DNA from: a virus | Taxonomy: Duplodnaviria; Heunggongvirae; Uroviricota; Caudoviricetes | Length of the DNA stretch: 17,352 nucleotides | Strand: one strand, 5' to 3' | Virus record (IMG/VR): IMGVR_UViG_2728369554_000022 | Span: 1-17,352 of that record | Shown here: positions 1 to 17,010 of the stretch, piece by piece | Layout: each line of letters opens with the position of its first letter | Position numbering within the stretch: the first letter of the stretch is position 1 | Program-made: the position numbers and the translations under genes | The notes under the pieces: generated by a model | Seen by the model: only the letters and a program-made list of their open reading frames with translations | What the model was told of the DNA's origin: nothing | The model's database searches: none

Positions 1-392
1 TTACTTAACATTACCGCCTCCACCCCGCAGACGGGAGAACAGCCCGGATACCAGCGATGCGATATCCTGCTGGTGGATGAATGAGAGAATCTTCACCGAC
101 ACCACCGATACCAGTACCGCGCAAAGCGCGTCGAGAGATGTGCTGTGGAGATTCAGTTTTTCGACCAGGTAAGACGCCATCACATCCGCCCCCAGTACGC
201 CAACAATGAACGACACCAGAAAATGCGCTGCCACACGCCAGACAGAAATCTTCTGTGGTATCGTGGCCACAAACAGCGCCCCTGCGAATGCACCAAACAC
301 AATCCCGAAATCCGTTCCGGTAAACAGCCCGAATACCGTCGCCCCGCCGAGCGCCGCAGCCGTGCCGGAACCGGATAAGGGTTCAGACATAC
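1..392 (-). CDS. Putative holin-like phage membrane protein (130 aa), first gene of the lysis cassette
   Basis: ATG at 392 with AGGAGA 7 nt upstream, TAA at 3..1. Three hydrophobic segments and a charged C-terminus (RLRGGGGNVK). Position downstream of Q and tRNAs matches lambdoid S. Family not recognised by sequence. Confidence 0.4.
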
Positions 393-408
393 TTTTTCTC
401 CTGTAAAT

Positions 409-430
409 AAAAAAGGGCCTCTGTCGGCCC
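409..430 (-). terminator. Hairpin plus T-run immediately upstream of the holin RBS (attenuator or terminator)
   Basis: Minus strand reads GGGCC-gacaga-GGCCC followed by TTTTTT. Confidence 0.4.
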
Positions 431-475
431 GTAAAAAAACACCCCGTCAAAGGCACCCGCAGATACCTTTTGTGT

Positions 476-519
476 GGTGTTATCTGGTGTTTTCTGGTGT
501 TTTCTGGTGTGGTGTGTGC
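476..519. repeat. Tandem ~10-bp repeat (TGGTGTTTTC-like, 3 to 4 units)
   Basis: tggtgttatc / tggtgttttc / tggtgttttc / tggtgtggtgtgtg read directly from the sequence. Confidence 0.7.
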
Positions 520-568
520 AGGACACAGATGTGAAAAAGGTCCGCTGGTACGAACCCTGTATATGGAT

Positions 569-594
569 AAAAAAATGCCCGTCAGGAGACGGGC
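569..594 (-). terminator. Rho-independent terminator-like hairpin
   Basis: Minus strand: GCCCGTC-tcct-GACGGGC followed by ATTTTTTT. Confidence 0.45.
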
Positions 595-643
595 CAGAGC
601 ATTCATCGTGTAGTAATAGAATTATATTTATAATGGTCGCCAC

Positions 644-720
644 CAGAATGAGTCGTCAACCTATAAAGCCATCCTGGCTTACTGTACGTGTGCGCATGGA
701 ACAGGTAACGACTCATTCTG
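644..720. repeat. Perfect 13-bp inverted repeat with 51-bp spacer
   Basis: cagaatgagtcgt (644-656) and acgactcattctg (708-720) are exact reverse complements. Confidence 0.7.
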
Positions 721-895
721 CTAACGACGTTTACAAGTAATAATCACATACCATTATGTAATACAAAAAAAGCAGCACTGAAACTGTAACCGTTCAGATA
801 TTACAGCATGAAGAAAAACAATAGTACCTACAAAGCTGTTCTCCGCGAAAATTCGCCAGTGCTGATAAAGCTATGCCTCGTTTGTTTTACAGGAG

Positions 896-967
<72 letters not shown>

Positions 968-970
968 ATA

Positions 971-1046
<76 letters not shown>

Positions 1047-1658
1047 GTTGGTTCCTCGGGAGTGAGATGAGATGCCCCGATACATAATGTATCATTCCCT
1101 CGGAACCACAAAAATAATACTAATAAATAATCAGGATGCAATATTTACCAACTATGTAATTGTAAATTTGTTTGAATAAAAAATTACTAAACACGCCATA
1201 TCGCCCCTCTAAAAAAGGGGGGCGTAATAATATAAGTGATACTAAGCATCACATTACTAAATACATTGTATTAAGCTGGCGACCCGATGCGTAATCCCTT
1301 GATATTAAAAACTCCAAACAAAATCAGAATGCCATCTGAATACACAAAAAGCTGGCTTCACACCACCCTGTATGTGAACGCAGAACTCATCACCCCACGC
1401 GCTTTCGCAGCCAGTACACAACCTGTGTCAAACGCTGGCAGATGAACAATGAAACTGCCAGCACGGTCACCTATCTTAGTTCGCGTCTCGTATTCTGCTT
1501 GATAATAAGTTTCCCGTTCTTCTCTTATTGTGCATTTTTCAGTTTATCTGTCAGTAGCATTTTGACATACCAATAATTCCTGTCGAGAAAATCAGTGAGC
1601 TAAAAAACCGTATTCACAGCCTCGGGCACGTTTAACGTACCGCACCACTTTTCGGGCG

Positions 1659-1685
1659 TAAAAAAACCCACATTAAGCGGGTTTT
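1659..1685 (-). terminator. Weak hairpin plus U-run downstream of the Q-like gene (tR'-like candidate)
   Basis: Minus strand: AAAACCC-gcttaatgt-GGGTTTT then further T residues. Only 3 GC pairs in the stem. Confidence 0.3.
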
Positions 1686-1765
1686 CAGGTGTCCATGTCT
1701 GCTATACGCCTCGTGATACAGCTTTACGAAGCGTACCAAAATTGAAGCAGTTTGTACGTAAAAAA

Positions 1766-2308
1766 TCAAGCCATTTTTTGAGCAAATGATTCTCGCATGG
1801 GAATGTATAGCGCATACTCAGCAACAGCCAACCAATTAGCAATTCGCTTTTCGCATGTGCTAAAACACCACTCTGGGTGTGCATCATTTAGCAATTCAGC
1901 CATTTTTCGCTTAGTCATCCCCCGCCCCTCATAGCGTTGCCGGAGAATACAAATCAATCCCGGATGATCCGCCATAACTTCGCCAATAACTCTGTCGATT
2001 ATTAATGCCTCTGAATCGGCACAATGTGCCAGCCAGCTCTTTTGCTTGCCGTTAATCATATCCCGCAAAAAAGCCTCAAGTTCAGGCTTGTCCAGACCTG
2101 CTTTTTTCATCCTCCGGAGCACCTCGTTAATTGCCGTTTTCGTCAATTTTTTGGATGCCAACAACTGATTGAACATATTTCCTGACCTGCCACCGCCAAT
2201 ATACGACCAGCGCCCCCACATACGCAGTTTGCCCTGAATCCAGACACTTTCCAGCGTGGCGAGACGAAGGTGTTCTCCGCTTTTTCCTGTATTCGTTGGG
2301 TAAATCAC
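1766..2308 (-). CDS. Late antiterminator Q candidate (Q82/QuuD-like), start uncertain
   Basis: GTG at 2308 overlaps the upstream stop (GTGA) with AAGGAGGG 7 nt upstream; alternative ATGs at 2221 and 2176. LRMWGRW motif recalls the LERWGAW motif of QuuD from memory. Last gene before the tRNA/lysis leader. Confidence 0.45.
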   Translation of the reverse strand: MIYPTNTGKSGEHLRLATLESVWIQGKLRMWGRWSYIGGGRSGNMFNQLLASKKLTKTAINEVLRRMKKAGLDKPELEAFLRDMINGKQKSWLAHCADSEALIIDRVIGEVMADHPGLICILRQRYEGRGMTKRKMAELLNDAHPEWCFSTCEKRIANWLAVAEYALYIPMRESFAQKMA

Positions 2309-2595
2309 AAATATCCCTCCTTTCTCCAGATTTCTTGTGTGCGAAAAACACCTTCTGCATGCATCAGGCGTAATTCTTCTTTGGTGTAATCGCTGGTTTT
2401 TAGCCGCCCGTCGATTAGATCGTGGCATGAGCTACAGGCAATCGCCGCCTGCATATCGTGTGGTTTTGTCGCTATTCCGCACGTTCCCGCCAGTCGGTAA
2501 TGCGCCAGCACAGACGTTTCCGGATCGTGATTGCAGTAGCCAGGAATTCTGACGGTGCACATCTGCCCCCGCGCCGCTTTACGTAAATCCACCAT
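2305..2595 (-). CDS. ybcO: YbcO-like putative nuclease (DUF1364 family), 96 aa
   Basis: ATG at 2595 overlaps upstream stop (TAATG). Pattern DLRKAARG..C.VRIPG.CN..PETSVLAH..CSSCHD matches recalled DLP12 YbcO; same length. Confidence 0.55.
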   Translation of the reverse strand: MVDLRKAARGQMCTVRIPGYCNHDPETSVLAHYRLAGTCGIATKPHDMQAAIACSSCHDLIDGRLKTSDYTKEELRLMHAEGVFRTQEIWRKEGYL

Positions 2596-3194
2596 TACGC
2601 AAACTCCAGCAGCTGCGCGGCCACATTTTCGACTTGTTCCGGAGAGGAAAATTTACGGAACAGAATCCAGTTCCACAGCACATTCAGAACAGATTTATAA
2701 ACCTGCTGAAACTCGGTTTCGTCCATATTCGCAAAAGCGATGGATTTCGCCCGACGCCCATGGCTACCGTCCGGATAAAAATGTTCGGTGTAAAATCCAG
2801 CCTGAATGGTTACCCACTCGCGAAAAGCCTCAAACGACTTTAGCAATGCCGTATCCCGGGTTCTGCGAGTCGCAACGGTGTTAAGGTATTGCTCTGCAGC
2901 ATCACTAAGGGCTGGCGTATGTTCCCGACCTACTGATTCGCACAGGAAATCAACGAAACCGGACACCAGTTCTCGTTCGCGAGGCGTGATCACCCCACCG
3001 ACCGGAGTCCAGTAATCGAATCCCAGTTGCAGGAGTTTGAAAAAACGCTTGTGGAATGCGTAGTTACGCACACGCTTAAAGTCTGCGTGTATCCACTCAC
3101 CTATTTTGATTTGATGCAAAAAATCGCAACTCTCCGGCGTCGCCGGGAGAAGTAATCCGGAAGAGGTTTGTTTGACCAGTTGTATATGCGCCAT
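2595..3194 (-). CDS. nin-region phage protein of unknown function (possibly DUF1367 family), 199 aa
   Basis: ATG at 3194 with GGAGA upstream; the track's 3206 start is TTG. Family assignment is a recollection only. Confidence 0.45.
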   Translation of the reverse strand: MAHIQLVKQTSSGLLLPATPESCDFLHQIKIGEWIHADFKRVRNYAFHKRFFKLLQLGFDYWTPVGGVITPRERELVSGFVDFLCESVGREHTPALSDAAEQYLNTVATRRTRDTALLKSFEAFREWVTIQAGFYTEHFYPDGSHGRRAKSIAFANMDETEFQQVYKSVLNVLWNWILFRKFSSPEQVENVAAQLLEFA

Positions 3195-3253
3195 TGCTGT
3201 CTCCAATGGCGCTGTAGGTTGCCAGTTGTTCAGGCTGGCTTACGAATTATAAC

Positions 3254-3427
3254 TCATTCCCGAATCACCTTGAAACCGAGCCTTTCAAGATATTCAATGA
3301 ATGCCTCGATAGATAAAATTACATGATTATCAGGGATTAACGTTGCGTAGATAACTTCCCCATTCTCAACGCGCACAGCAAAGAGGCCATTTTCACTAAA
3401 AATTTCACGTAATTCTTCAATTTTCAT
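3254..3427 (-). CDS. Small hypothetical protein (57 aa), absent from the ORF track
   Basis: ATG at 3427 with AAGGA 8 nt upstream, TGA at 3256..3254; translates to MKIEELREIFSENGLFAVRVENGEVIYATLIPDNHVILSIEAFIEYLERLGFKVIRE. Confidence 0.4.
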   Translation of the reverse strand: MKIEELREIFSENGLFAVRVENGEVIYATLIPDNHVILSIEAFIEYLERLGFKVIRE

Positions 3428-3547
3428 CAACAGAATCCTTCCAGATAAATAGCACCCCCCTGTTCGGGGTCCATCCCTCTTCTCCCTGCGCGCTACTTAA
3501 GTATTTTTGATTCTATTCCGGCATCGTCCATAACTTCAAACGTATTG

Positions 3548-3579
3548 AAAATAAAAACAAAAACCCGCCGAAGCGGGTT
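3548..3579 (-). terminator. Rho-independent terminator of the hok transcript
   Basis: Minus strand: AACCCGC-ttcg-GCGGGTT followed by TTTGTTTTTATTTT. Confidence 0.65.
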
Positions 3580-3647
3580 AAGTGCGGGTGCGTTGAAGAT
3601 GCCTGACACATCATAGGCGGCGAGGGATTTCTCCCTCGCCTGGTCTC

Positions 3648-3803
3648 TTACTCCTCAGGTTCGTAAGCTGTGAAGACAGCGACCTCCGTCTGGCCGGTTC
3701 GGATTCGTACCTCGCAGAGGTCTTTCCTCGTTACCAGTGCCGTCACTATGACGGTTAAACAGATGACGATCAGGACGATTAACATCGCCTTTTGCTGCTT
3801 CAT
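3648..3803 (-). CDS. hokD: Hok/Gef-family type I toxin (51 aa)
   Basis: MKQQKAMLIVLIVICLTVIVTALVTRKDLCEVRIRTGQTEVAVFTAYEPEE, near-identical to recalled HokD/RelF; AAGGAGA upstream of ATG 3803. In-frame upstream ATG at 3860 gives a 70-aa mok-like extension. Confidence 0.8.
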   Translation of the reverse strand: MKQQKAMLIVLIVICLTVIVTALVTRKDLCEVRIRTGQTEVAVFTAYEPEE

Positions 3804-3975
3804 AGCCTGCTTCTCCTTGCCTTTCGGCACGTAAGAGGCTAACCTACATTTGTGAGACATAGATTGGGCCTCAGATTAATGTTAAGCGTCTTGCAGGACG
3901 CGTAATGTTAACTGGGGCTTTTCTCTATCTGCCTTTGGTGTTCATGCCCGAGGCAGATAGCCTCAAGCACCCGCA
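3804..3975. promoter_or_regulatory. hok leader with candidate antisense (Sok-like) region and structured elements
   Basis: Direct repeat TAATGTTAA (3876-3884, 3903-3911) flanking hairpin GCGTC-ttgcag-GACGC; 10-bp stem CTATCTGCCT/AGGCAGATAG at ~3937-3972. Sok promoter not defined. Confidence 0.35.
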
Positions 3976-4093
3976 GCAATTCTACTTAACTCTCCTTTTC
4001 CCGCAAACCGTTTTTATCCCCAGCGGCAAATCGAATACACCACCAGCGCCACCGCCATCGCAATTCCTACCGTGGTGAATGCATCAGGCCGGG

Positions 4094-4798
4094 TCATTGA
4101 TTCACCTCCTGCGGCGGTTCTGGTAGCGGCATCCAGTGAGTTGAGCTCTCTACTTCGACGCCGTCTTTGTCCACAAAAGCCATCTTATTCCCGCCACGAG
4201 TGGGGCAAAAAACCTTATCCCAGGAACCGGGGAATATATTCCCGAGATCATCGAGAAGAATCACATCGCAATATTCAGCAGGAACTGCATCACTACAGCT
4301 TATCCAGCCAGCCGGAGTTCCCGGAGAGCTGGTTGACGTTTCCGAGATTTCCCGAAAATTGTTGGTTGACGAATTCTTACTTTCCCGAAAGTTTTCGGCC
4401 TGAAGCATGGCGACACGGCAGGCGTTCCAGCCATCAGCATATGTTTCAGTTACACCGTCGAGATGGCAGGTAAGCAAATCCATTTCATCAGGCACTACCA
4501 TCGCTGGCGGCGCTGCGTAAAGCGGTGTTATTTCTGCCCGAAAATCACCTACTTTATGCAGTCGCACCCACCGTTCGATTTCTGCTTTGTCAGAATTCAT
4601 AAGGGTGAACGTATTACATTCATGGTTAATTTGCGTGAAGGTTGCCTTCCACGCCACCGGCTCTGCTTCCAGTGATGCCAGTGCAATTTTGAATAACTCG
4701 CCCTCTACCTGCGCCATCCCTGAATTTGGGTGGCATTTCGCAATCGCTATTTTTAATTTGGCTTCTTCGATTAATTGCTCTTTGGTTAATTCAGTCAT
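4094..4798 (-). CDS. Hypothetical phage protein (234 aa), C-terminus resembles DUF551
   Basis: ATG at 4798. C-terminal WIS.SD..P and THWMPLPEPP pattern recalls DUF551 from memory. Confidence 0.5.
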   Translation of the reverse strand: MTELTKEQLIEEAKLKIAIAKCHPNSGMAQVEGELFKIALASLEAEPVAWKATFTQINHECNTFTLMNSDKAEIERWVRLHKVGDFRAEITPLYAAPPAMVVPDEMDLLTCHLDGVTETYADGWNACRVAMLQAENFRESKNSSTNNFREISETSTSSPGTPAGWISCSDAVPAEYCDVILLDDLGNIFPGSWDKVFCPTRGGNKMAFVDKDGVEVESSTHWMPLPEPPQEVNQ

Positions 4799-4928
4799 TT
4801 TTCATTACCGCCCTTTCAGGCGGCCTCCTGATGTTCTGAGGGTGCAGAAATCCCTCCGGTTAAGGATTTAATAAAATTCACTTCTGATTTAAATTTTCAG
4901 TATTTTGTTGTCAGGTGGTTTATCGCCT

Positions 4929-5240
4929 TTATGCTTCAGTCTTATTTCTCAGCCATACACAAACAGGACCATCTTCAGTGTCATGAATGGAACCAATGAA
5001 CCAGCCTTCACCTTCCGGGCGCTCCGGTTTCCAGGAGGCAATATCGGGACCATCTGCGTCCAGATTAAAATCATCTTCATCCATAGTTCTGATGGTCCAT
5101 TGAAGATTATTTTCCTCCATCCATGCGTTAAACTCTTCCGTTGAAATATGTTCTCTACCATCACAGAATTTTTCATATTCAGGATGCGTCCAGCAGCCAT
5201 ATTCATCACGTACTACTGGTATTTCTTTAATTTCATTCAT
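4929..5240 (-). CDS. Highly acidic small phage protein (103 aa), function unknown
   Basis: ATG at 5240 with GGGAGA upstream; ~25% D+E, Trp-rich; stop overlaps next gene. Confidence 0.5.
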   Translation of the reverse strand: MNEIKEIPVVRDEYGCWTHPEYEKFCDGREHISTEEFNAWMEENNLQWTIRTMDEDDFNLDADGPDIASWKPERPEGEGWFIGSIHDTEDGPVCVWLRNKTEA

Positions 5241-5487
5241 TTCTGTTCTCCCACGTTTTCAGACTTTCACCACAGAACGGACAAAATGAAACCCGCACTG
5301 GTAATTTAGAAAATTCACCGGAACGCAACATCACCAAATCAGGGTCGCGAGTTAAATTCTCATTCCAGATTTTGTATATCAGCAGACCTTTTCGCGTCGT
5401 GTATTCAGCATCATGCTCAAGGGCTTTTGCCAGTACCGCACATGGTTCTATCTGATTGCTATTAACCTGACATTTTGATTCGCTCAC
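5233..5487 (-). CDS. Small Cys-containing protein (84 aa), possible zinc ribbon
   Basis: GTG at 5487 overlaps upstream TGA (GTGA) with AGGAGG upstream; Cys at 6, 16 and a CPFCG motif. Confidence 0.45.
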   Translation of the reverse strand: MSESKCQVNSNQIEPCAVLAKALEHDAEYTTRKGLLIYKIWNENLTRDPDLVMLRSGEFSKLPVRVSFCPFCGESLKTWENRNE

Positions 5488-5906
5488 AGCATCACCTCCT
5501 GAAATTCCCCCTGATAAAACGCCAGCACTCGCTGCATAACCTCACTCTTCCGGCACTCGCGACAGATTATGTTCTGACGCCTGTCGTAGCGGCGTATTTC
5601 TCCGTCAGGTAATGACCTGATAAGGTCCGGATCAACCACAGCCGTTTTCTTCACCTTTGCCCTTGAGAGTTTTTTGCGGGCGTTTTGCCAGTCCTTACGG
5701 GCCTGTTCAGAGGGAAATAACCCGTAGCCAGAGTTGTATACATCACCACTAGCAACCAGCTCTCTGGCGAGAACACTCATCAGATATCTTGTCGCACCTG
5801 TTTTCGCTTCCAGTTGCCGTAACGTCTCGCGCCCACTCCGGCGTACTAGCTCAACAACCTGCCCTTTAATTTTTTCTCGCTCTTCCTGTGTAAATACTTT
5901 TGCCAT
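5484..5906 (-). CDS. Hypothetical phage protein (141 aa) with winged-helix-like N-terminus
   Basis: ATG at 5906 with GGGGAGG upstream; track start at 5972 is TTG without RBS. Confidence 0.5.
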   Translation of the reverse strand: MAKVFTQEEREKIKGQVVELVRRSGRETLRQLEAKTGATRYLMSVLARELVASGDVYNSGYGLFPSEQARKDWQNARKKLSRAKVKKTAVVDPDLIRSLPDGEIRRYDRRQNIICRECRKSEVMQRVLAFYQGEFQEVML

Positions 5907-5922
5907 AAGCCCTCCCCAGGAA

Positions 5923-6684
5923 TCACTTTTCCGACACAATACGACTGGAGGAATCAACAATCTGTCGAACAATATCCCGGTGCTTATTCAGCTCCCGCAG
6001 CGCGGCGCAGACACGCTCCCACTTCTGGACATGACTTTTCGCCCGACGCAGTTCGCGGTTTGCCATATGCAGCGATGGTAAAACCAGGTCATCCGCTTGC
6101 GTTTCGGCGAACGGTGGCAACGACTGCACAATATCCGCCACAGTTTCTGTTTTAATATCTTCCTGTGTTGCAGCTTCCTGTACTGGTAACGCAACACCGG
6201 CTGGCTGAGGAAAGGCTTTACCATCAGTTTCCGCTACCGATGCCGCTTTCGGCTCTGCTGGTAAATTACCGCCCGGCATGCAGTAACGAAATTTACCGTT
6301 CTGATTAACACGAATCAGACGACCTTTGCTGATTGCCATTGCCAGCGTTGAAGCCACTTTGCGGGATGTTGTACCGAACAGCGTAGCCAGTTCATCCGCC
6401 GTTTGTGGTCCGCGTTGTTCAATCGTCGCGGTTAAATCGCACTCTGAGATTTTCGCTACTGTCGCCGTGCTGGTTTCTTCCGGCTGTTCTTCTGGCGCTG
6501 GCTGTTCCTGCTGAACGTTGTTATCAGCCACACGCCAGGTGTATGCGCTTTTATCAACGAAGCCAGCCTTTTTAAGTTCCCACAGCTCATTCAGCACTTC
6601 TTCACGACTGATATCAAGTCGCGCAGCCAGCTCTACCGACGTGGCTTTTCCCATCGCTTTCAGTGCGTCAAAAACAGTCTCCAT
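5923..6684 (-). CDS. Phage protein with two winged-helix-like segments (DUF1627-like), 253 aa
   Basis: ATG at 6684 with GGGAGG upstream; acidic linker; sits downstream of the DnaC-like gene. Confidence 0.5.
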
Positions 6685-6704
6685 AAATTTCCTCCCGGTA
6701 AAAA

Positions 6705-7451
6705 TTACTTTTCAATACCTGGCTGACCAACATTCGGGCGCCAGCTCTCCCAGTTAAAATTCACCCAGCGCCCGCCGTTCATGGTCATGCGATCCATAAT
6801 CCGCTCGCCGAGCAATGTTTTCATGGCCTCATAGTTCAGGTTTGTCAGCATTCCCACGCTACGCATCGACGCTGTCCGTCGATCAATAATCTGGTGCAGT
6901 ACCACCTGCTCGTTTTTCGTCTCGCGCTGAATGCCAATTTCATCAAGAACCAGCAGATCCACTTCGCACAGTTCCCGCAAAAATTTTTCGCCTGACTGCC
7001 CGTCGTCATAGCTGGCGTGCAGGGCGCTCATAACATCAGCCACGGTAACCACAATCACTGTCTGACCGTCTTTCAGCAGGCGATTCCCGATAGCTGCCGC
7101 TAAGTGATTCTTCCCGGTACCAGGTTTTCCGCTGAACGCAAAATTTGTACACCCGGTCATCAGTTCATCGGCGATGGATTTCGCCTGGCTTAACGCGTAT
7201 CGCTGGCCGTCGTTCTGCACCTGGTAATTCGCAAACGAGCATTTACGGTGCAACGGCTGGATGCCTGAGCGATTCAGAATTTTTTCCACCCGCAACTGGC
7301 GATTCAGGCGGTTGATCTCCTCGCTACGTTTCTGGCCTTCAGCAAGTTGCCACTCGCGCCACTCCGCAACCGTTCTGAATGGGGCGGTTACATGTGGTGG
7401 GGTCAGTCTGCGGATACGCTCCAGAACGCCTCCTGTCGCAATATTTTTCAT
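6705..7451 (-). CDS. DnaC-like replicative helicase loader (AAA+ ATPase, YdaV-like), 248 aa
   Basis: Walker [16 protein letters not shown] and Walker B LLVLDEIG; position after the initiator gene. Confidence 0.85.
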
Positions 7452-7457
7452 GGTCTG

Positions 7458-8252
7458 TTACCCCCTGAAGCCTGGCGGGATCGCACTGTCCGGCAACGAG
7501 ACGGTGTTAACCTGTCGGAGCAACGTCTCAGGCCGAACACCTTTCGGCGCGAACAGGCCCTGGTATTCATTGGCGATGCTGTGTCGAATCACCTGCTCAG
7601 GTGTAAAACCCTGCTGACGGAATTTTTCCAGTTCCCGTATCGCCCCGTTAGCGCCCTGCTCCGTTCGAATCGGTTTTCGCAATGCCTGTCTGAACCGGAC
7701 CCACTCATGCCAGAGTGTTTCCGGCAACCAATCGGGCAGCTCAATAGCCTCCGGCTCGAATTTTTTAGACGCTCGTTTTTGGCGAGGGGGATTTAGGGGG
7801 AGATCAGTATTTAGATCTTCCTCTTCCTCTTCCTCTTCCTCTGGTAGCGCTTTTTGATCCGTTTGTGTAACGCCGGCAGCGTTACCTTTTCGTTTCAGTT
7901 CACGTATTTTTGTAACTCGCTCGTTTGTAACCGCCCGTTTTTTAGAGCTTTTTCCGTTATGGCGTTCAAAGTTAGGTAGAGAAAGCCCAACGTCATTTTC
8001 GACCAGCCATCCAACCTGAATTAACGCATCAGCAAAACCAGCCATAAAAGTGATGCGATCTATTGCACTTTTTGTAACGCCGCGAGCGTTACAATCTGCA
8101 TTACCGTCTATCATTTGTTGATCCGCCCATGCCCAGAAGCGAATAACCTTCCCTAATGCGGCATCTGGATCAATATTCAGAATCTCAGCAAGCCTGAATA
8201 TTTCCGGCTTATCCGGCGTAATAACCTCGAGCTTTATCCAGTTTGAAGCCAT
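7458..8252 (-). CDS. Replication initiator / replisome organiser (YdaU-like, lambda O analogue), 264 aa
   Basis: ATG at 8252 with AAGGTG upstream; poly-Glu linker; contains two of the three 19-bp palindromes; immediately precedes the DnaC-like gene. Confidence 0.5.
   Translation of the reverse strand: MASNWIKLEVITPDKPEIFRLAEILNIDPDAALGKVIRFWAWADQQMIDGNADCNARGVTKSAIDRITFMAGFADALIQVGWLVENDVGLSLPNFERHNGKSSKKRAVTNERVTKIRELKRKGNAAGVTQTDQKALPEEEEEEEEDLNTDLPLNPPRQKRASKKFEPEAIELPDWLPETLWHEWVRFRQALRKPIRTEQGANGAIRELEKFRQQGFTPEQVIRHSIANEYQGLFAPKGVRPETLLRQVNTVSLPDSAIPPGFRG
7817..7842. repeat. Hexanucleotide tandem repeat (CTCTTC)n encoding a poly-Glu tract
   Basis: cttcctcttcctcttcctcttcctct encodes EEEEEEEE on the minus strand. 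Confidence 0.8.
7867..7885. repeat. 19-bp palindrome GTAACGC-N5-GCGTTAC, copy 1 (inside initiator gene)
   Basis: gtaacgccggcagcgttac read directly. Confidence 0.8.
8074..8092. repeat. 19-bp palindrome GTAACGC-N5-GCGTTAC, copy 2 (inside initiator gene)
   Basis: gtaacgccgcgagcgttac, with flanking TT/AA extending the symmetry. Confidence 0.8.
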
Positions 8253-8265
8253 TTGTTTTCACCTT

Positions 8266-8284
8266 GTAACGCTCGCAGCGTTAC
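8266..8284. repeat. 19-bp palindrome GTAACGC-N5-GCGTTAC, copy 3 (intergenic, upstream of initiator RBS)
   Basis: gtaacgctcgcagcgttac, located between the ydaT-like stop and the initiator start. Confidence 0.8.
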
Positions 8285-8329
8285 ATTTAACTGATACCGA
8301 ACAAAACAATCCGGCACGATTAATTTCAA

Positions 8330-8752
8330 TCAATGCACTACGACAGAATCACCGGGCGACCCACCACCGCTGAAATGTGCTTTCCGGTAAACGGCCTGGA
8401 CTGCATCATCATGCGCATCAATTGCCGTACTCAACGCTTCCTGCGCCGCCAGTAATGCACGGCGTTCCAGGGTATCGAAGATGCAGAGTCGGTGACGCAG
8501 CTCGCGCGGAAGAATTGCCAGAACCGCAGGGATCAGTGTCTGAATTTTTTCCCTTTGCGCTTTCGTTTCACCTTTTAACCAACGGTGATAGATGTTCTGC
8601 TGATTATTCCAGTCCTTGCCTGGTACCAGGGGCAATTCGCCGCCCCCCTGGCGCAGATATTCTTCAGTAATTGCATTGGCTACCCATGCCTGCCCTTTTT
8701 CAGCGGCCAGGGCTAACAGCACTGATTCGATGTGCTCATGCCTGATTTTCAT
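8330..8752 (-). CDS. ydaT: YdaT-like protein (140 aa)
   Basis: ATG at 8752 with AGGAG upstream; length and position after the YdaS-like gene match the Rac ydaS-ydaT pair. Confidence 0.6.
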   Translation of the reverse strand: MKIRHEHIESVLLALAAEKGQAWVANAITEEYLRQGGGELPLVPGKDWNNQQNIYHRWLKGETKAQREKIQTLIPAVLAILPRELRHRLCIFDTLERRALLAAQEALSTAIDAHDDAVQAVYRKAHFSGGGSPGDSVVVH

Positions 8753-9011
8753 GAATCAACTCCTGTGCATTTTGTGTGTTAGCCTTACATCCAACAGGTA
8801 AACCATCGGTCGGATTCGGGTAGATATCAGGCCGGAGTTCATGAGGTGTAACCTCGAAATTCGTAGCCTCTGCGATACGCAATACCTTTTCAGGGCTTAA
8901 CTGACTACGTCCAGTAGCAACGAGGCTAATCATTGATTGCGAACAACCAGCCAGCGCGGCCAAACAAGACTGTCGTACACGATTTTTTTTCAAATATTCA
9001 TCTAATGTCAT
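8736..9011 (-). CDS. ydaS: YdaS-like Cro-type HTH regulator (91 aa)
   Basis: ATG at 9011 with AAGGTGA upstream (track start at 9038 is TTG); HTH-like segment; divergent from the repressor gene. Confidence 0.55.
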   Translation of the reverse strand: MTLDEYLKKNRVRQSCLAALAGCSQSMISLVATGRSQLSPEKVLRIAEATNFEVTPHELRPDIYPNPTDGLPVGCKANTQNAQELIHENQA

Positions 9012-9115
9012 AAGGGTCACCTTAGTAATGTTCGCCAAAATATTAACTATACTAATTTAAATGATCAATACTTATATCAGTTTGAGATTATGAGCTGTGT
9101 TCATAAGATGGTGGT
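9012..9115. promoter_or_regulatory. Divergent promoter/operator region between ydaS-like and racR-like genes
   Basis: 104-bp AT-rich intergenic region with palindrome TTATGA-gctgtgt-TCATAA (~9090-9108) and TGATCA (9064-9069). Confidence 0.4.
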
Positions 9116-9580
9116 ATGAGAAGAAAACGCGAAGAAATCGCATCGCCAGAAGCTACGCAGCGTCTACGCGGAATCTGGGATGCAAAAAAAAGAGAGCTCA
9201 AATTGACTCAGGAGCTTGCTGCCGAGCTAATGGGCTTTGAGACGCAATCTACGGTTAGCCACTATCTCAACGGAAAGGCTCCACTTAACACTGATGCGGC
9301 ATTAAAATTCGCAGTATTGCTAAGAGTTAAGCCTGAAGACTTGAGGCCTGATTTAGCTGATCTGATGAATTACGTCCGTTCCTCTGGAACTTATGACGAA
9401 AGTTTCGAAGGCGAAGGGTGGCGGATGGTTAACAAGCAACAAGCTGATTTACTGGATCTTTTTGATATCCTCCCCGAATCAGAAAAAGCAAAACTAATCG
9501 AAAGGCTTAAAGGCCAGAATGAACTCTACAAAGAAGCGTTTGAAAATATGCTGGCAGCTCAGAAACGCATAAAGAAATAG
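9116..9580 (+). CDS. racR: RacR-like prophage repressor (HTH), 154 aa
   Basis: HTH-like LTQELAAELMGFETQSTVSHYLNG; divergent from ydaS-like; followed by a strong terminator. Confidence 0.6.
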   Translation: MRRKREEIASPEATQRLRGIWDAKKRELKLTQELAAELMGFETQSTVSHYLNGKAPLNTDAALKFAVLLRVKPEDLRPDLADLMNYVRSSGTYDESFEGEGWRMVNKQQADLLDLFDILPESEKAKLIERLKGQNELYKEAFENMLAAQKRIKK

Positions 9581-9600
9581 CCCCCACTACCTCGTAACTA

Positions 9601-9626
9601 AACCGCCATCCCTGGCGGTTTTTTTG
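9601..9626 (+). terminator. Rho-independent terminator after racR
   Basis: CCGCCA-tccc-TGGCGG followed by TTTTTTT. Confidence 0.7.
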
Positions 9627-9697
9627 TCCCCTGCGCCCCCATCGCCTTACTTTTTTATCAAAAAAAACACTAAAATTTTCATTATGATAGTACATTT

Positions 9698-9728
9698 TTA
9701 TCAACAAAATGCATATTTATGTTGATCA
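9698..9728. promoter_or_regulatory. Candidate operator/promoter upstream of ydaG (early-left, PL-like position)
   Basis: Inverted repeat TTATCAACA-N13-TGTTGATCA in an AT-rich region ~90 bp upstream of ydaG. Confidence 0.3.
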
Positions 9729-9816
9729 TTAATATGAATATAACTAATATTATTGCAGAAGCAGCACGGCGCTGTAGGTTTTAGTTCCGCCACCCGGCGT
9801 TAAGGGGAGAGATAAG

Positions 9817-9951
9817 ATGGTGCATTACGAAGTAGTTCAGTATTTGATGGATTGTTGCGGTATCACTTACAACCAGGCTGTGCAGGCTTTACGCAGCAAC
9901 GACTGGGATCTCTGGCAGGCAGAAGCCTCTATCCGCAACAACAAAATGTGA
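9817..9951 (+). CDS. ydaG: YdaG-like small protein (44 aa)
   Basis: ATG at 9817 with AGGGGAGAG upstream; MVHYEVVQYLMDCCGITYNQAVQALRSNDWDLWQAEASIRNNKM; size and position match recalled Rac ydaG. Not in ORF track. Confidence 0.5.
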   Translation: MVHYEVVQYLMDCCGITYNQAVQALRSNDWDLWQAEASIRNNKM

Positions 9952-9961
9952 GGTGCGAAAA

Positions 9962-10114
9962 ATGCAAAAAATCGACCTCGGCAATAACGAATCCCTGGGG
10001 TGCGGCGTGTTCCCCAACCAGGATGGAACGTTCACTGCCATGACTTATACCAAAAGCAAGACATTCAAAACTGAAACGGGCGCACGTCGCTGGCTTGCCA
10101 GAAATACTGGCTAA
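9962..10114 (+). CDS. ydaF: YdaF-like small protein (50 aa)
   Basis: ATG at 9962 with GAGGTG upstream; MQKIDLGNNESLGCGVFPNQDGTFTAMTYTKSKTFKTETGARRWLARNTG. Not in ORF track. Confidence 0.5.
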   Translation: MQKIDLGNNESLGCGVFPNQDGTFTAMTYTKSKTFKTETGARRWLARNTG

Positions 10115-10295
10115 TCCATTATTTGGATTAATTCAATATTCTCGCTGTAGGGGTATAGCAGAAACCACCAAAGCCCGGAGGTGGTGAAATAAAACCGGGC
10201 ACAACACGAAGGCGCATTTCCGATATCCATAAAGAGTCGGTTTTGTCTGTTAAATTTAAATGGTGGGAGTGCGCCTCCGGTTGTAAATAACGACA

Positions 10296-10360
10296 TTGCT
10301 GTGTGTAGTCTTGGCGGCATCAGTTTTTTCTTGAAGTTCGGCTGATGTCCGCCCCTTTTT
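10296..10360 (+). ncRNA. DicF-like sRNA candidate with intrinsic terminator, upstream of kilR
   Basis: TTGGCGGCATCAGTTTT ... CTGATGTCCGCCCC-TTTTT; stem GGCGGCATCAG/CTGATG(T)CCGCC plus U-run; resembles recalled DicF core. Boundaries approximate. Confidence 0.45.
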
Positions 10361-10525
10361 AAAGTGAATTTTGTGATGCGGTGAATGCGGCTAAGCGCAC
10401 GCGGAACAGTTAAAAGCATCAGTGTTATGGGTGGATTATCCGGCGTTAATTGTTAACTGGTTAACGTCACCTGGAGGCACCAGGCACCGCATCAACAAAG
10501 TTCATTTGTAAAAATGGAGATAATT

Positions 10526-10747
10526 ATGATTGCACATCACTTCGGAACTGAGGAAATACCACGTCAGTGTGTGACTCCTGGCGATTATGTTCTTCATGAA
10601 GGCCGGACATATATTGCCTCGGCAAACAATATTAAAAAGCGAAAACTTTATATTCGTAACCTGACCACAAAAACATGCATTACTGACTGCATGATTAAAG
10701 TCTTCCTCGGTCGTGATGGTTTACCTGTAAAGGCGGAGTCATGGTGA
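10526..10747 (+). CDS. kilR: KilR-like cell-division inhibitor (73 aa)
   Basis: ATG at 10526 with GGAGA upstream; size and synteny with Rac kilR; sequence recognised from memory. Confidence 0.7.
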
Positions 10748-10917
10748 TGACTAAGAAAATAAAATGTGCTTACCACCTTTGCAATAAAGAAGTTGAAAAA
10801 AGCAAAAGCATTACAAAACCACTTCATTTCATGCGTGGAGTTATCCCAACGACGGAAATGAAAAAATATTGTAGTGAAATATGTGCCGAAAAAGACCAGA
10901 TGGCACACGAACTTTAA
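10747..10917 (+). CDS. ydaE: YdaE-like Cys-rich small protein (56 aa)
   Basis: ATG overlaps kilR stop (TGATG); four Cys; not in ORF track as a separate ORF. Confidence 0.6.
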   Translation: MTKKIKCAYHLCNKEVEKSKSITKPLHFMRGVIPTTEMKKYCSEICAEKDQMAHEL

Positions 10918-10991
10918 TTAACTGACTATTCGAAACTGAATTTATGCCAGCAATGGCAGGGATTCACTCAACCTTAATTAAGGAGAAAAAC

Positions 10992-11237
10992 ATGATTACC
11001 AATTATGAAGCCACTGTTGTAACTACCGATGACATTGTTCACGAGGTTAATCTGGAAGGAAAGCGTATTGGCTACGTGATTAAAACAGAAAATAAAGAAA
11101 CCCCATTCACTGTGGTTGATATCGACGGTCCATCAGGCAACGTAAAAACACTTGATGAAGGTGTCACAAAAATGTGCCTGGTTCACATCGGAAAGAATCT
11201 GCCCGCAGAAAAAAAGCCGGATTTCTGGCAACTCTGA
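10992..11237 (+). CDS. racC: RacC-like protein (81 aa from this start)
   Basis: ATG at 10992 with AGGAGA 5 nt upstream; upstream in-frame ATGs at 10944/10953 lack an RBS. Confidence 0.55.
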   Translation: MITNYEATVVTTDDIVHEVNLEGKRIGYVIKTENKETPFTVVDIDGPSGNVKTLDEGVTKMCLVHIGKNLPAEKKPDFWQL

Positions 11238-11367
11238 TTGCAATGAAATTAAACGGTGAAATCTGAAAGAAATAGCCTGCGTATGGCGCAGGCTATGAAC
11301 AGTGTGTATCCGGCAAGATCATTCACTGAACAAAACGAATTTTAATCTGAGTTGAGGTTAAAAAACA

Positions 11368-14040
11368 ATGAGCACAAAACCACTCTTCCTGTTACGGAAA
11401 GCGAAAAAATCATCCGGTGAACCTGACGTCGTCTTGTGGGCAAGCGACGATTTTGAATCGACCTGTGCCACTCTGGACTACCTGATCGTTAAGTCAGGTA
11501 AAAAACTGAGCAGCTATTTTAAAGCTGTTGCCACGAATTTTCCTGTCGTTAATGACCTTCCCCCTGAAGGTGAGATCGATTTTACCTGGAGTGAACGCTA
11601 TCAACTCAGCAAAGACTCCATGACCTGGGAACTAAAACCGGGAGCAGCGCCAGACGACGTTCACCACCATGATAATGCTCAGGAAACCAAAGAACTGGCG
11701 GGGGGCCAGGAAGAAAACGCGCAGGCAGACGCCCACGGGGATTGCCAGGATTGCGAAGTCTCTGTAGCCACTTTGCGGTTCACACAGCGTCTTCTGCACA
11801 TTTTTACGTATGCGGCCGGGGATCGGAAATACCTGCATCATGCCACCCGTGAACAACGCGAACACATCACTGCTCTTGAGATGGATCAGGAAAACAGCTA
11901 TGTCCAGAATCTGCTGTTGGCCATACGCGGCATGGCAGAACCGACAACTCTGGATAATGCCGCCCTGCTCCGCCTGACTGATGCAATTAAGGCAGTTTTC
12001 TCTATCACGAAAAAACATCAGCCCTATGAATTTAAGAATTTCATTTCAGCCTGGCTGGATACCGAACACATTGATCGCGGTCTTCTGACAAAAGAATGGC
12101 GAAAAGGGAATCGTGTTTCACGCATCACTCGCACGGCTTCCGGTGCTAATGCTGGCGGCGGGAACCTCACCGATCGCGGCGAAGGTTTCGTCCACGATCT
12201 GACGTCACTGGCGCGCGATGTAGCCACTGGCGTACTGGCCCGTTCAATGGACGTGGACATTTATAACCTTCATCCTGCACACGCTAAACGCATTGAGGAA
12301 ATTATCGCTGAAAATAAACCGCCCTTTTCTGTTTTCCGCGACAAATTCATCACCATGCCTGGCGGGCTGGATTATTCCCGCGCCATCGTGGTTGCGTCCG
12401 TGAAAGAAGCACCAATTGGGATCGAGGTCATCCCCGCGCACGTCACTGAATATCTGAACAAAGTACTGACTGAAACCGATCATGCCAACCCTGATCCGGA
12501 AATCGTGGATATTGCCTGCGGTCGCTCCTCTGCCCCGATGCCGCAGCGTGTAACAGAAGAAGAAAAACAGGATGATGAAGAAAAACCGCAACCATCTTGC
12601 GCAATGGCAGATGAACAGGCAACGGCTGAAACAGTGGAACCGGATGCAACTGAACATCATCAGGACACGCAGCCGCTGGATGCTCAGTCACAGGTAAATT
12701 CTGTTGATGCGAAATATCAGAAACTGCGGGCAGAACTCCATGAAGCCCGGAAAAACATTCCGCCCAAAAATCCTGTCGATGCAGACAAATTACTGGCTGC
12801 CTATCGCGGAGAATTTGTTGCAGGGATTAGCGACCCGAATGATCCGAAATGGGTTAAAGGGATCCAGACCCGCGATTCTGTGTACCAGCATCAGCCAGAA
12901 ACGGAACAGAACGACCGAAAATCGGAACAAAACGGCCAAAATGCGCGACAAAATGAACCAGAAGCGCAACAGGAACTGGAAAAAGTCTGCAATGCCTGCG
13001 GTCAGTCTGGTGGAGATAACTGCCCTGATTGTGGCGCGGTGATGGGCGACACCACATATCAGGAAACCTTTAATGAAGAAAATCTGGATGAATCTCAGGA
13101 AAAAGATCCGGAGGAAATGGAAGGCCCTGAACATCCGCACAATGAGAATGCTGGCAGCGATCCGCATCGCGATTGCAGTGATGAAACTGGCGAAGTCGCA
13201 GATCCCGTAATCGCAGGAGACATAGAGCCTGGTATTTATTACGGAATTTCGAATGAGAATTACCACGCGGGTCCCGGTGTCAGTAAGTCTCAGCTCGACG
13301 ACATTGCTGATACTCCGGCGCTGTATTTGTGGCGTAAAAATGCCCCAGTGGACACCACAAAGACAAAAACGCTCGATTTAGGAACCGCTTTCCACTGCCG
13401 TGTACTTGAACCGGAAGAATTCAGTAACCGCTTTATCGTGGCACCTGAATTTAACCGCCGTACAACCGCCGGAAAAGAAGAAGAGAAAGCGTTTCTGATG
13501 GAATGCGCAAGCACAGGAAAAACGGTTATCACTGCCGAAGAAGGCCGGAAAATTGAACTCATGTATCAGAGCGTTATGGCTTTGCCGCTGGGTCAATGGC
13601 TTGTTGCAAGCGCCGGACACGCTGAATCATCAATTTACTGGGAAGATCCTGAAACAGGAATTTTGTGTCGGTGCCGTCCGGACAAAATTATTCCTGAATT
13701 TCACTGGATCATGGACGTGAAAACCACAGCGGATATTCAACGATTCAAAACGGCTTATTACGACTACCGCTATCACGTTCAGGATGCATTCTACAGTGAC
13801 GGTTATGAAGCACAGTTTGGTGTGCTGCCAACTTTCGTTTTTCTGGTTGCCAGCACAACTGTTGAATGCGGACGTTACCCGGTTGAGATTTTCATGATGG
13901 GCGAAGAAGCAAAACTGGCAGGCCAGCAGGAATATCACCGCAATCTGAGGACCCTGGCTGACTGCCTGAATACCGATGAATGGCCAGCTATTAAAACGTT
14001 ATCACTGCCCCGCTGGGCTAAGGAGTATGCAAATGACTAA
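11368..14040 (+). CDS. recE: RecE exodeoxyribonuclease VIII (890 aa)
   Basis: N-terminus [41 protein letters not shown] recognised as RecE; long acidic central region; C-terminal nuclease domain. Confidence 0.9.
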
Positions 14041-14842
14041 GCAACCACCTATCGCAAAAGCCGATCTGCAAAAAACCCAGGGAAACCGTGCACCAGCAGC
14101 AGTAAAAAATAACGACGTGATCAGCTTTATTAATCAGCCATCAATGAAAGAGCAACTGGCAGCAGCTCTCCCACGCCATATGACGGCTGAACGAATGATA
14201 CGTATCGCCACTACAGAAATTCGTAAGGTTCCGGCGCTAGGAAACTGTGACACCATGAGTTTTGTCAGTGCGATCGTTCAGTGTTCACAGCTCGGCCTTG
14301 AGCCAGGTAGCGCCCTCGGCCACGCATATTTACTGCCTTTTGGTAATAAAAACGAAAAGAGCGGTAAAAAGAACGTCCAGCTAATCATTGGTTATCGCGG
14401 CATGATTGATCTGGCTCGCCGTTCTGGTCAAATCGCCAGCCTGTCAGCCCGTGTTGTCCGTGAAGGTGACGTGTTTAGTTTTGAATTTGGCCTTGATGAA
14501 AAGTTAATACACCGCCCGGGAGAAAACGAAGATGCACCAGTGACCCACGTCTATGCTGTCGCAAGACTGAAAGACGGAGGGACTCAGTTTGAGGTTATGA
14601 CACGCAAACAGATTGAGATTGTACGCAACCAGAGTAAAGCAGGTAATAACGGGCCGTGGGTAACTCACTGGGAAGAAATGGCAAAAAAAACGGCTATTCG
14701 TCGCCTGTTCAAATATCTGCCCGTATCAATTGAGATCCAGCGTGCAGTATCAATGGATGAAAAGGAACCACTGACAATCGATCCTGCAGATTCCTCTGTA
14801 TTAACCGGAGAATACAGTGTAATCGATAATTCAGAGGAATAA
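14033..14842 (+). CDS. recT: RecT single-strand annealing recombinase (269 aa)
   Basis: ATG at 14033 overlaps recE 3' end, AAGGAG upstream; [16 protein letters not shown] recognised. Confidence 0.9.
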
Positions 14843-14849
14843 TTCAGCC

Positions 14850-14868
14850 TGGCGGTGTAATGCACCGC
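14850..14868 (+). other. GC-rich hairpin between recT and ralR (possible attenuator)
   Basis: GGCGGTG-taat-GCACCGCC; T-run begins ~12 nt downstream, so not a canonical terminator. Confidence 0.3.
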
Positions 14869-14898
14869 CAACTTGAAATATTTTTTATGAGAAAAATT

Positions 14899-15093
14899 AT
14901 GAGATATGACAATGTTAAACCATGTCCATTTTGTGGTTGTCCATCAGTAACGGTGAAAGCCATTTCAGGATATTACCGAGCGAAGTGTAACGGATGCGAA
15001 TCCCGAACCGGTTATGGTGGAAGTGAAAAAGAAGCACTCGAAAGATGGAATAAACGAACCACTGAAAATATTAATGGAGGCTTTCATGTATAA
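14899..15093 (+). CDS. ralR: RalR/Lar restriction-alleviation protein (64 aa)
   Basis: MRYDNVKPCPFCGCPSVTVKAISGYYRAKCNGCESR..., zinc-ribbon-like, recognised as Rac Lar. Confidence 0.8.
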   Translation: MRYDNVKPCPFCGCPSVTVKAISGYYRAKCNGCESRTGYGGSEKEALERWNKRTTENINGGFHV

Positions 15094-15274
15094 AATTACC
15101 GCTACAATTGAAAAGGAAGGTGGCACTCCTACTAACTGGACAAGATATTCAAAATCTAAACTAACGAAATCGGAATGCGAAAAAATGCTCTCAGGGAAAA
15201 AAGAAGCAGGCGTTTCCAGAGAGCAGAAAGTAAAACTGATAAATTTTAATTGCGAGAAACTTCTGTCATCGTGA
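15086..15274 (+). CDS. ydaC: YdaC-like small protein (62 aa from this start)
   Basis: ATG at 15086 with GGAGG 5 nt upstream, overlapping ralR stop; synteny with Rac ydaC. Confidence 0.55.
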   Translation: MYKITATIEKEGGTPTNWTRYSKSKLTKSECEKMLSGKKEAGVSREQKVKLINFNCEKLLSS

Positions 15275-15380
15275 GTTGCATTATATCCAAATCAGAACTT
15301 CATAGCTGATTATTAAAAATCAACCACACCCGCCAGTATTTTGTATATTTACTGGCGGTCATATCGTAAGAGGTATGGCA

Positions 15381-15662
15381 ATGAATCTTGTGACACTCAA
15401 AACCTGGGGAAGACTCAGATATCCGGATAACCCACCATCAATATCAACGCTGAGACGATGGGCAAGGAATGGAAACATTTATCCTGCACCTGAACTACAC
15501 GGGAGGAGTTACAGGGTGGTTCCGGAGGCTTTCTATATCAACCCAAATAAGGTTGATACCGATATAACACACCACCAGCCTAATGGGCGACAAGGGAGAG
15601 ACAGTCCGTTAATGGAGAAGTTAAAACATGCAGCGGAAAAAATACGATCCCAATTTGCCTAG
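15381..15662 (+). CDS. Excisionase (Xis-like)
   Basis: AAGAGG upstream of ATG 15381; resembles lambda Xis N-terminus; 3' end overlaps int start as in lambda. Confidence 0.7.
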   Translation: MNLVTLKTWGRLRYPDNPPSISTLRRWARNGNIYPAPELHGRSYRVVPEAFYINPNKVDTDITHHQPNGRQGRDSPLMEKLKHAAEKIRSQFA

Positions 15663-16704: not shown

Positions 16705-16751
16705 TTTTAACGTAAATGGATTGTTAAATGTATTTTGGTTGTGATATAACC

Positions 16752-16853
16752 AAAAAAGACCGAATACGATTCCTGTATTCGGTCCAGGGAAATGGCTCTT
16801 GGGAGAGAGCCGTGCGCTAAAAGTTGGCATTAATGCAGGCTTAGTTGCCTTGC
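16752..16853 (-). ncRNA. sdsR: SdsR (RyeB) sRNA
   Basis: Minus strand reads GCAAGGCAACTAAGCCTGCATTAATGCC...GACCGAATACAGGAATCGTATTCGGTC-TTTTTT, matching recalled SdsR with its terminator; sigma-S-like -10 TCTATTCTTAA just upstream. Confidence 0.8.
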
Positions 16854-16982: not shown

Positions 16983-17010
16983 TTGGAAATCAAAAGGCTA
17001 TTTTAGGTAA

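Follow-up and report, generated by a model that had tools for sequence, protein, structure and literature searches.

To our knowledge, most temperate phages that do not belong to the lambda O/P type have unmapped replication origins. In iteron plasmids, the Rep initiators (RepA of pPS10, F and P1; pi of R6K) bind inverted repeats as dimers and single repeats as monomers. In phage lambda, O dimers bind a 19-bp imperfect inverted repeat, the iteron, which lies in the central part of gene O with an easily opened region adjacent to it (PMC7466680). Here we analysed a 17,352-bp stretch of viral DNA, hereafter the window (positions 1 to 17,352 of IMG/VR record IMGVR_UViG_2728369554_000022), which is an Escherichia coli Rac-family prophage that adjoins ttcA and carries recE, recT, kilR, xisR and intR. 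Its replication initiator gene contains two copies of the palindrome GTAACGC-N5-GCGTTAC (GTAACGCNNNNNGCGTTAC) and is preceded by a third. Judging from conservation, co-occurrence and covariation, these palindromes are probably the cognate sites of the prophage's own predicted winged-helix initiator, and would form a lambda-like origin inside its gene.

The locus resembles ori-lambda in several respects. As in lambda, the sites, to which the initiator is predicted to bind, lie inside the initiator gene, in the part that encodes the end of the N-terminal domain (N-domain) and the linker; the unit is a 19-bp dyad, which in lambda is bound by a dimer (PMC7466680); a strand-asymmetric, easily opened region stands next to the last site, a role predicted here for a purine tract; the N-domain is matched in specificity to its sites, and both are exchanged together as a module; and an O-like C-terminal domain (C-domain; phrog_678, homologous to a Gifsy-2 gpO homolog) is followed by a helicase-loader gene. 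In contrast to lambda, the N-domain in the window has no Pfam match (Phage_rep_O included), one copy of the site lies upstream of the gene, the tract is a homopurine (GAR)n run that is not clearly AT-rich, the partner is DnaC-like instead of P, and the site is invariant over much of the initiator family instead of diversified. Lambda also has four to six tandem iterons, whereas the sites here are 190–230 bp apart; the original prediction had remarked on this dispersed spacing, and rightly so, since the full sites are separated by 192 and 207 bp and only half-sites are closely phased (~12 bp). The element would therefore work like a lambda-type origin but without tandem iterons and without an O-family N-domain. 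Iteron plasmids offer a second parallel in their winged-helix initiators (predicted here) and in the combination of full palindromes with isolated phased half-sites. They differ in that the initiator in the window matches neither Rep_3 nor any other Pfam family, its inverted repeat has no overlapping promoter, and its sites lie inside a coding sequence and belong to a phage, not a plasmid.

Exact matching found the palindrome three times in the window, with start-to-start distances of 207 and 192 bp (Table 1), and no further copy was present in the 17,352 bp even when two mismatches were tolerated. Only 0.04 matches were expected by chance and none of 200 shuffles gave three. These results bore out the claim of three 19-bp palindromes at ~200-bp spacing made in the original prediction, and the gene context agreed with its description of two coding copies (CNARGVT and GNAAGVT) and a third between the ydaT stop codon and the ribosome-binding site (RBS) of the initiator gene. 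Its extra GTAAC half-sites at about 7908–7933 fared less well. Pentamers are indeed found at 7912 and 7927, but of 43 homologs only 3 and 8, respectively, have GTTAC at the corresponding codons; we dropped them as parts of the element for this lack of conservation, and they are probably by-products of Val-Thr codons.

To follow the palindromes across homologs, we picked 27 loci by protein similarity alone, taking one genome per species (31–95% identity). The palindrome of the window recurred in these loci at constant distances from the ATG (+149 or +161, and +338 to +413), with identical arms and unrelated 5-nt spacers down to 31–50% protein identity. In a set of 60 non-redundant homolog regions, site A (+149 or +161) was present in 55, and the site-B window held 56 site copies, with at least one in 54 regions. 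The upstream palindrome was restricted to 17 loci, all of the enterobacterial branch, where its offset relative to the ATG is −31 to −43; 7 of these 17 have no YdaT homolog nearby. A finer comparison came from 83 distinct close relatives (≥88% identity), in which the arms differed from the window at 0.1–0.3% of positions, compared with 2–24% for the spacers and 5% for third codon positions; at the upstream palindrome, the arms differed at 0.2% and the spacer at 7% of positions.

The constraint is also visible in codon choice. At site A, 53 of 53 Asn codons were AAC, compared with 144 of 260 at other positions of these genes, and GTT was far commoner as the Val codon than elsewhere in those genes, figures that are indicative only, because the sites were pre-selected at ≤1 mismatch and the homologs are related rather than phylogenetically independent. 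Next to the core of site A, one flank had no residues but Cys, Gly and Ser (TGT, GGT, AGT), and the opposite flank none but Ser, Gly and Cys (AGC, GGC, TGC), which are exactly the amino acids with arm-preserving codons (NGT, NGC). Of the non-redundant genes, 36 read site B in frame 1 and 19 read it in frame 0 (giving, for example, VTLPAL), and the third frame through it would yield a TAA stop. We looked for homologs in which the peptide is kept and the palindrome lost, the pattern that the original prediction had named as contrary to it, and saw the reverse, with the palindrome kept while the peptide changes. With fixed arms and free spacers, fixed synonymous positions, two reading frames and a non-coding copy, the DNA-level function proposed in that prediction is strongly supported by these comparisons. 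The element appears to be a clean case of a predicted binding site that constrains the protein encoding it, in which the permitted residues are precisely the ones encoded by NGT or NGC.

We then scanned viral contigs by DNA alone for two palindromes 163–193 bp apart, which returned at least 120 loci. Among the palindrome-pair loci listed, 120 of 120 encoded the N-terminal 137 residues of the initiator (38–100% identity), while only 60 of the 120 encoded this initiator's C-domain, and homologs of YdaT, YdaS, the repressor and the DnaC-like loader were absent from most palindrome-bearing loci. Most likely, given this co-inheritance, the palindromes are the cognate sites of the initiator's own N-domain. 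The 19-bp motif pair can serve to locate this replication module from DNA alone. The N-domain family itself is large, with 6,539 clusters (50% identity) at E ≤ 1e-3 and 4,090 at E ≤ 1e-10, and the peptide footprint of the palindrome was seen in 101 of its 148 best representatives.

Palindrome-bearing contigs were assigned to Erwinia, Yersinia, Serratia and Pantoea. Homologs with the palindrome (L019–L021, L023–L025) were also found in Novipirellula rosea JCM 17759 and on contigs of metagenome-assembled genomes (MAGs) labelled Planctomycetota/Pirellulaceae, Saccharibacteria and Ignavibacteriae, labels that need caution. These occurrences reflect either a very broad host range of the module or, for the MAGs, binning contamination.

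Divergent initiators carried palindromes with symmetric changes in both arms, repeated at both sites. Two Planctomycetota MAG contigs had CTAACGx-N5-GCGTTAG, a Paraglaciecola MAG had GTCACAA-N5-GTGTGAC, and Ralstonia phage Raharianne (L232) had GTAGACG-N6-CGTCTAC twice, at +154 and +370 of the gene. The initiator of epsilon15 and its relatives (PAT1, SPN1S, phiPSA1, RPZH6) has a homologous N-domain (32–34% identity) and likewise two 19-bp palindromes in its gene, of which the second immediately precedes a CCAGAG(AAGAG)n purine tract. It differs from that of the window in the palindrome, GTCCGC-N7-GCGGAC (19 bp, twice per gene in epsilon15, PAT1, RPZH6 and phiPSA1, phages of Salmonella, Ralstonia and Pseudomonas), in the position of the first copy (+66, not +149 or +161), and in a C-terminal domain annotated in the record as DnaT-like. 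In epsilon15 (L229) the copies lie at 2566–2584 and 2845–2863 within the initiator gene, and neither these nor those of Raharianne are annotated in their records. Distant subfamilies thus have different 19–20-bp palindromes at equivalent positions, and in every specificity class the second palindrome stands just before a purine tract. On this sequence evidence, palindrome specificity covaries with the initiator protein subfamily, which provides ready specificity classes for swaps (GTAACGC, GTCCGC, GTAGACG and CTAACG).

The Rac prophage of E. coli K-12 provides a natural exchange of this kind. The window is 92.7% identical to K-12 Rac over 8758–8332 (ydaT) and 91.4% identical over 7819–6600 (the remainder of the initiator gene plus ydaV), whereas the two cannot be aligned across 7820–8331. 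The K-12 gene in that slot joins a DUF1376 N-domain to a C-domain that is homologous to that of the window and nearly identical to it in the last ~80 residues. The resulting YdaU protein occupies the same position in the order ydaS-ydaT-initiator-ydaV, in the same prophage family at ttcA, and repeats are again found in the linker-coding region, where ydaU (L237, NC_000913.3; 3005–3078) holds AGATGTTCAAACA four to five times, with the direct copies spaced by 33, 33 and 12 bp and one further copy inverted. Unlike the C-domain, the N-domain and the repeats are unrelated to those of the window, the 7820–8331 cassette having been replaced whole. The AGATGTTCAAACA set is a candidate set of iterons for the DUF1376-type initiator, and these ydaU repeats may correspond to the classical Rac oriJ. 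Because the swapped unit spans everything between the upstream palindrome and the purine tract, both included, the N-domain, the three palindromes, the half-site and the tract behave as one heritable module, which this natural replacement delimits to 7820–8331.

Two parts of the conserved element near palindrome B, the half-site at 7844–7850 and the 27-nt homopurine tract, were missing from the original prediction. The half-site is phased with the palindrome: in homologs, CGTTAC was offset by +24/25 from the start of the last palindrome in 20 of 54 and by +36 in 22 of 54, as in the window, and a left half-site GTAACG stood at −12 in 17 of 54. The phasing is thus ~12 bp, with the right half-site one or two steps from the right arm of the palindrome. 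A purine tract (median 23 nt) followed the last palindrome in all homologs examined, as (GAGGAA)n read EEEEEE in enterobacteria and as (GAGAA)n read REEKRREEK, QRREEK or TREEKR elsewhere. GTTACC followed by the tract was found in 51 of 57 genes and in three frames, namely ALPEEE (44), RYQRREEK (5) and VTREEK (2). The use of AGA and AAG codons and of differing frames argues for a DNA component in the conservation of the tract.

The segment just beyond the purine tract (7780–7815; gene strand TCTAAATACTGATCTCCCCCTAAATCCCCCTCGCC), at the point from which the window is again homologous to K-12, contains a GATC-flanked AT-rich stretch and then a pair of AAATCCCCC repeats spaced by 12 bp, and K-12 has ATCCCCCCC twice (L237, 3116–3151); AAACCCC-like motifs also follow the purine tract in epsilon15 and TL-2011b. 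This pattern may be set at the level of the protein (DPPLNPP) or may belong to the origin.

Structure prediction placed the intragenic sites in permissive parts of the protein. The AlphaFold2 model of the initiator, built from a 38-sequence alignment (mean predicted local distance difference test score, pLDDT, 68.5), has an N-domain with helices at residues 16–25, 29–48, 61–68 and 73–80, a beta-hairpin at 84–91 and a basic helix at 104–121, then a linker modelled as disordered (120–161) and a three-helix C-domain. The peptide encoded by palindrome A falls in a predicted low-confidence loop between helices 2 and 3 (residues 54–56 with low pLDDT), and that of palindrome B is modelled within the disordered interdomain linker, so the sites appear to be placed where the protein tolerates them.

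Taken together, the findings suggest the following mechanism. A dimer of the initiator N-domain would sit on each palindrome, with one monomer per GTAACGC arm. The origin core would consist of palindrome B, the phased half-site at 7844–7850 and the homopurine tract at 7816–7842, all in the linker-coding part of the gene, and DNA would open at or beside the tract, a candidate unwinding and helicase-loading region. The lambda-O-like C-domain of the bound initiator could then recruit the DnaC-like loader, product of ydaV and its presumed partner, together with host DnaB. Palindrome A and, in the enterobacterial branch, the upstream palindrome would act as accessory sites ~200 bp apart, either looped into the same nucleoprotein complex or serving as a transcriptional roadblock for autoregulation. 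The suggestion of origin or autoregulatory sites by analogy with lambda, made in the original prediction, hence gains in silico support from the N-domain co-occurrence, the covariation, the K-12 cassette swap and the 19-bp size of the dyad.

Several observations weigh against this proposal, besides the pre-selection and relatedness behind the codon counts. The full sites are 190–230 bp apart and not tandem, and no consistent helical phasing was found among spacings of 189, 192, 204, 207, 209, 219 and 231 bp. No strongly AT-rich unwinding element was found in the window, where GC content is 0.375–0.5 in 40-nt windows around the sites; the 27-nt homopurine tract is followed by TCTAAATACT, and GC stays at or above 0.375 there. 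Glu codons are all-purine, so part of the conservation of the tract could be protein-level. Symmetric arm changes keep hairpin pairing too and do not by themselves separate a dimer-bound duplex from a hairpin or cruciform. Finally, the literature that we searched, with incomplete coverage, held no binding, footprint or origin-activity data for these sites, and what we found on Rac oriJ, Eru replication units, the epsilon15 origin and lambdoid iterons, again with incomplete coverage, contained no description of the palindromes.

An alternative that we regard as unlikely is that the initiator-bound palindromes serve solely as operators that keep the initiator gene and ydaV from being transcribed, by repression or as a roadblock, with the true origin elsewhere in the prophage. 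The upstream copy lies 1 nt from the RBS, dispersed spacing is commoner among operators than among iterons, and winged-helix Rep dimers of iteron plasmids bind inverted repeats to autorepress, all of which would fit such a role. No sigma-70-like promoter was found adjoining any of the three palindromes, though, and none overlaps the inverted repeat at 8266–8284. The upstream copy is missing in 43 of the 60 non-redundant homologs, while the intragenic copies are nearly universal; the phased half-sites and the purine tract by site B have no obvious part in repression; and K-12 Rac has its own repeats at the same linker-coding position.

Less likely again is that the palindromes act as a hairpin or cruciform (7-bp stem, 5-nt loop) in single-stranded DNA or mRNA, giving a signal for priming or primosome assembly, or an RNA element for translation or stability. 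The arms are complementary in all variant classes, the loop is free in sequence and fixed in length, the upstream copy abuts the Shine-Dalgarno sequence, and the C-terminus of the initiator is weakly DnaT-like. Yet the arms are invariant within a class, without compensatory changes, across 38–100% protein identity, which argues for sequence-specific recognition and not for pairing alone. Isolated unpaired half-sites are conserved too, at the ~12-bp phasing, and the classes follow the subfamily of the predicted duplex-binding winged-helix domain. A terminator-like T-run accompanies a single copy: palindrome B is followed by CTTTTCGTTT, terminator-like on the plus strand and antisense to the initiator gene. 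With one of three copies affected and such hits occurring at the chance rate, we rejected an intrinsic terminator. Dispersed palindromes of the REP (repetitive extragenic palindromic)/BIME (bacterial interspersed mosaic element) or MITE (miniature inverted-repeat transposable element) kind were rejected as well, given only three copies in 17 kb, two of them coding, and the tie of all palindrome-pair loci to the initiator N-domain.

That the palindromes are targets of another protein, be it the CII-like YdaT, the YdaS- or RacR-like regulators, the DnaC-like loader or a host factor, seems very improbable. YdaT of Rac and of CP-933P has been footprinted on (A/T)TGATT-N6-AATCAA (PMC11879457, PMC9986795), and such a box is present at the ydaT start of the window (Table 1), whose YdaT conserves H56, R57 and W58; the YdaT target is therefore separate from the palindromes. 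The original prediction had named YdaT-like or RacR-like proteins as candidate binders, which this different box and the absence of their homologs from most palindrome loci make unlikely, and we rejected YdaT as the palindrome binder on the same grounds. The DnaC-like loader is equally missing from most of these loci. Hosts span Enterobacterales, Xanthomonas, Pseudomonas and MAGs of other phyla, so no single host factor fits. In favour of another binder, a weak YdaT-box-like sequence with two mismatches lies at 8316–8333, at the ydaT stop and 32 bp from the upstream palindrome. A second box with two mismatches is found inside ydaS (8933–8950), and the window as a whole contains 8 YdaT-box matches against 1.8 expected.

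The remaining reading, in which the palindromes arise as a side effect of a repeated functional peptide (xNAxxVT) or by chance, is effectively refuted: two of the three copies in the window do encode similar heptapeptides in the same frame, but one copy is non-coding, site B is read VTLPAL in other lineages, wobble bases are fixed while first-codon bases of flanking codons vary, the peptides fall in a low-confidence loop and a disordered linker, and 0.04 matches were expected.

The analysis yields a precise, testable prediction of an origin and of its initiator recognition sequence, for an initiator family that is common both in prophages of E. coli, Shigella and Salmonella and among plant-pathogen phages. 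The element is of an expected type, yet well delimited and widely distributed. A bolder generalisation, which we put forward tentatively and rate as somewhat less than an even chance, is that a large N-domain family with no Pfam model uses a non-lambda origin, with two or three dimer sites ~200 bp apart that are looped or wrapped, opening at a homopurine (GAR)n tract, and a site so constrained that it imprints the peptide [CGS]-N-A-x-[SG]-V-T on the protein, the site itself being identical from Enterobacterales to Xanthomonas and possibly other phyla.

One locus bears a rearrangement at these sites. In L149 (IMGVR_UViG_2731957942_000002), a 193-bp tandem duplication lies around +161 to +400 of the initiator gene, and at its junction the left flank of palindrome A is joined to the right flank of the upstream palindrome, after which the gene restarts (…GCGTTACAAAGAGAGTACAAAATGGCTTCAAAC…). 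The duplication may stem from unequal exchange between palindromes or be an assembly artefact. Palindromes might accordingly be joints for module exchange or duplication.

The features of the window are collected in Table 1.

Table 1 Positions of the initiator gene, its sites and neighbouring features in the 17,352-bp window; an empty strand cell means that no strand is given.
Feature	Position	Strand	Description
DnaC-like helicase loader gene ydaV	6705–7451	−	directly downstream of the initiator gene; NF009043 (E 2e-153), DnaC equivalog (E 7e-91), PF01695
Replication initiator gene	7458–8252	−	264 residues; winged-helix-like N-domain (~1–120), disordered linker (~121–161), lambda-O-like C-domain, as predicted
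Homopurine tract (GAGGAA)n	7816–7842	−	27 nt, gene strand; translated as the Glu run of the linker
Specificity cassette	7820–8331	−	upstream palindrome, N-domain coding sequence, palindromes A and B, half-site and purine tract; one inherited unit
Isolated half-site GCGCTAC (gene strand)	7844–7850		1 mismatch to GCGTTAC; starts 35 nt downstream of the palindrome B start (CGTTAC core +36); abuts the purine tract
Intragenic palindrome B	7867–7885		+368 from ATG; codons 123–129, read G-N-A-A-G-V-T
Intragenic palindrome A	8074–8092		+161 from ATG; codons 54–60, read C-N-A-R-G-V-T
Upstream palindrome	8266–8284		GTAACGC-TCGCA-GCGTTAC; non-coding, between ydaT stop and initiator RBS; 1 nt from AAGGTG
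YdaT/CII-like gene	8330–8752	−	PF06254
YdaS/Cro-like gene	8736–9011	−	faces the repressor-like gene
YdaT box CTGATT-N6-AATCAA	8742–8759		CTGATT-TTCATG-AATCAA; overlaps ydaT start, as does the K-12 Rac footprint; 1 mismatch to TTGATT-N6-AATCAA
Repressor-like helix-turn-helix gene	9116–9580	+

The initiator gene sits within the ydaS-ydaT operon. Its product matched phrog_2509 ('replication initiation protein') at E 2e-90, and none of the Pfam-A families searched, among them Phage_rep_O, matched the 264-residue protein at E ≤ 0.01; precomputed Pfam domains of the homologs listed were likewise '-', save for a few partial or fused entries with the unrelated PF00872 and PF07789. For the C-domain, the match was to phrog_678 ('replication initiation O-like', E 1e-25), with 46% identity to the Gifsy-2 gpO homolog. 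The resemblance of the C-terminus to the DnaT tail was weak to marginal (E 0.3 in a profile search of PDB sequences, where it was the sole match). In RefSeq, the initiator of the window and its close E. coli homologs are annotated as 'hypothetical protein'. Common initiator variants of E. coli and Salmonella (P0013 and P0024, 376–378 residues) carry an insertion of ~112 residues right after the acidic linker (…GRIDIVVTDRNGVRCGIELD…), which by eye looks like a small nuclease-like domain and is located immediately downstream of the proposed origin core.

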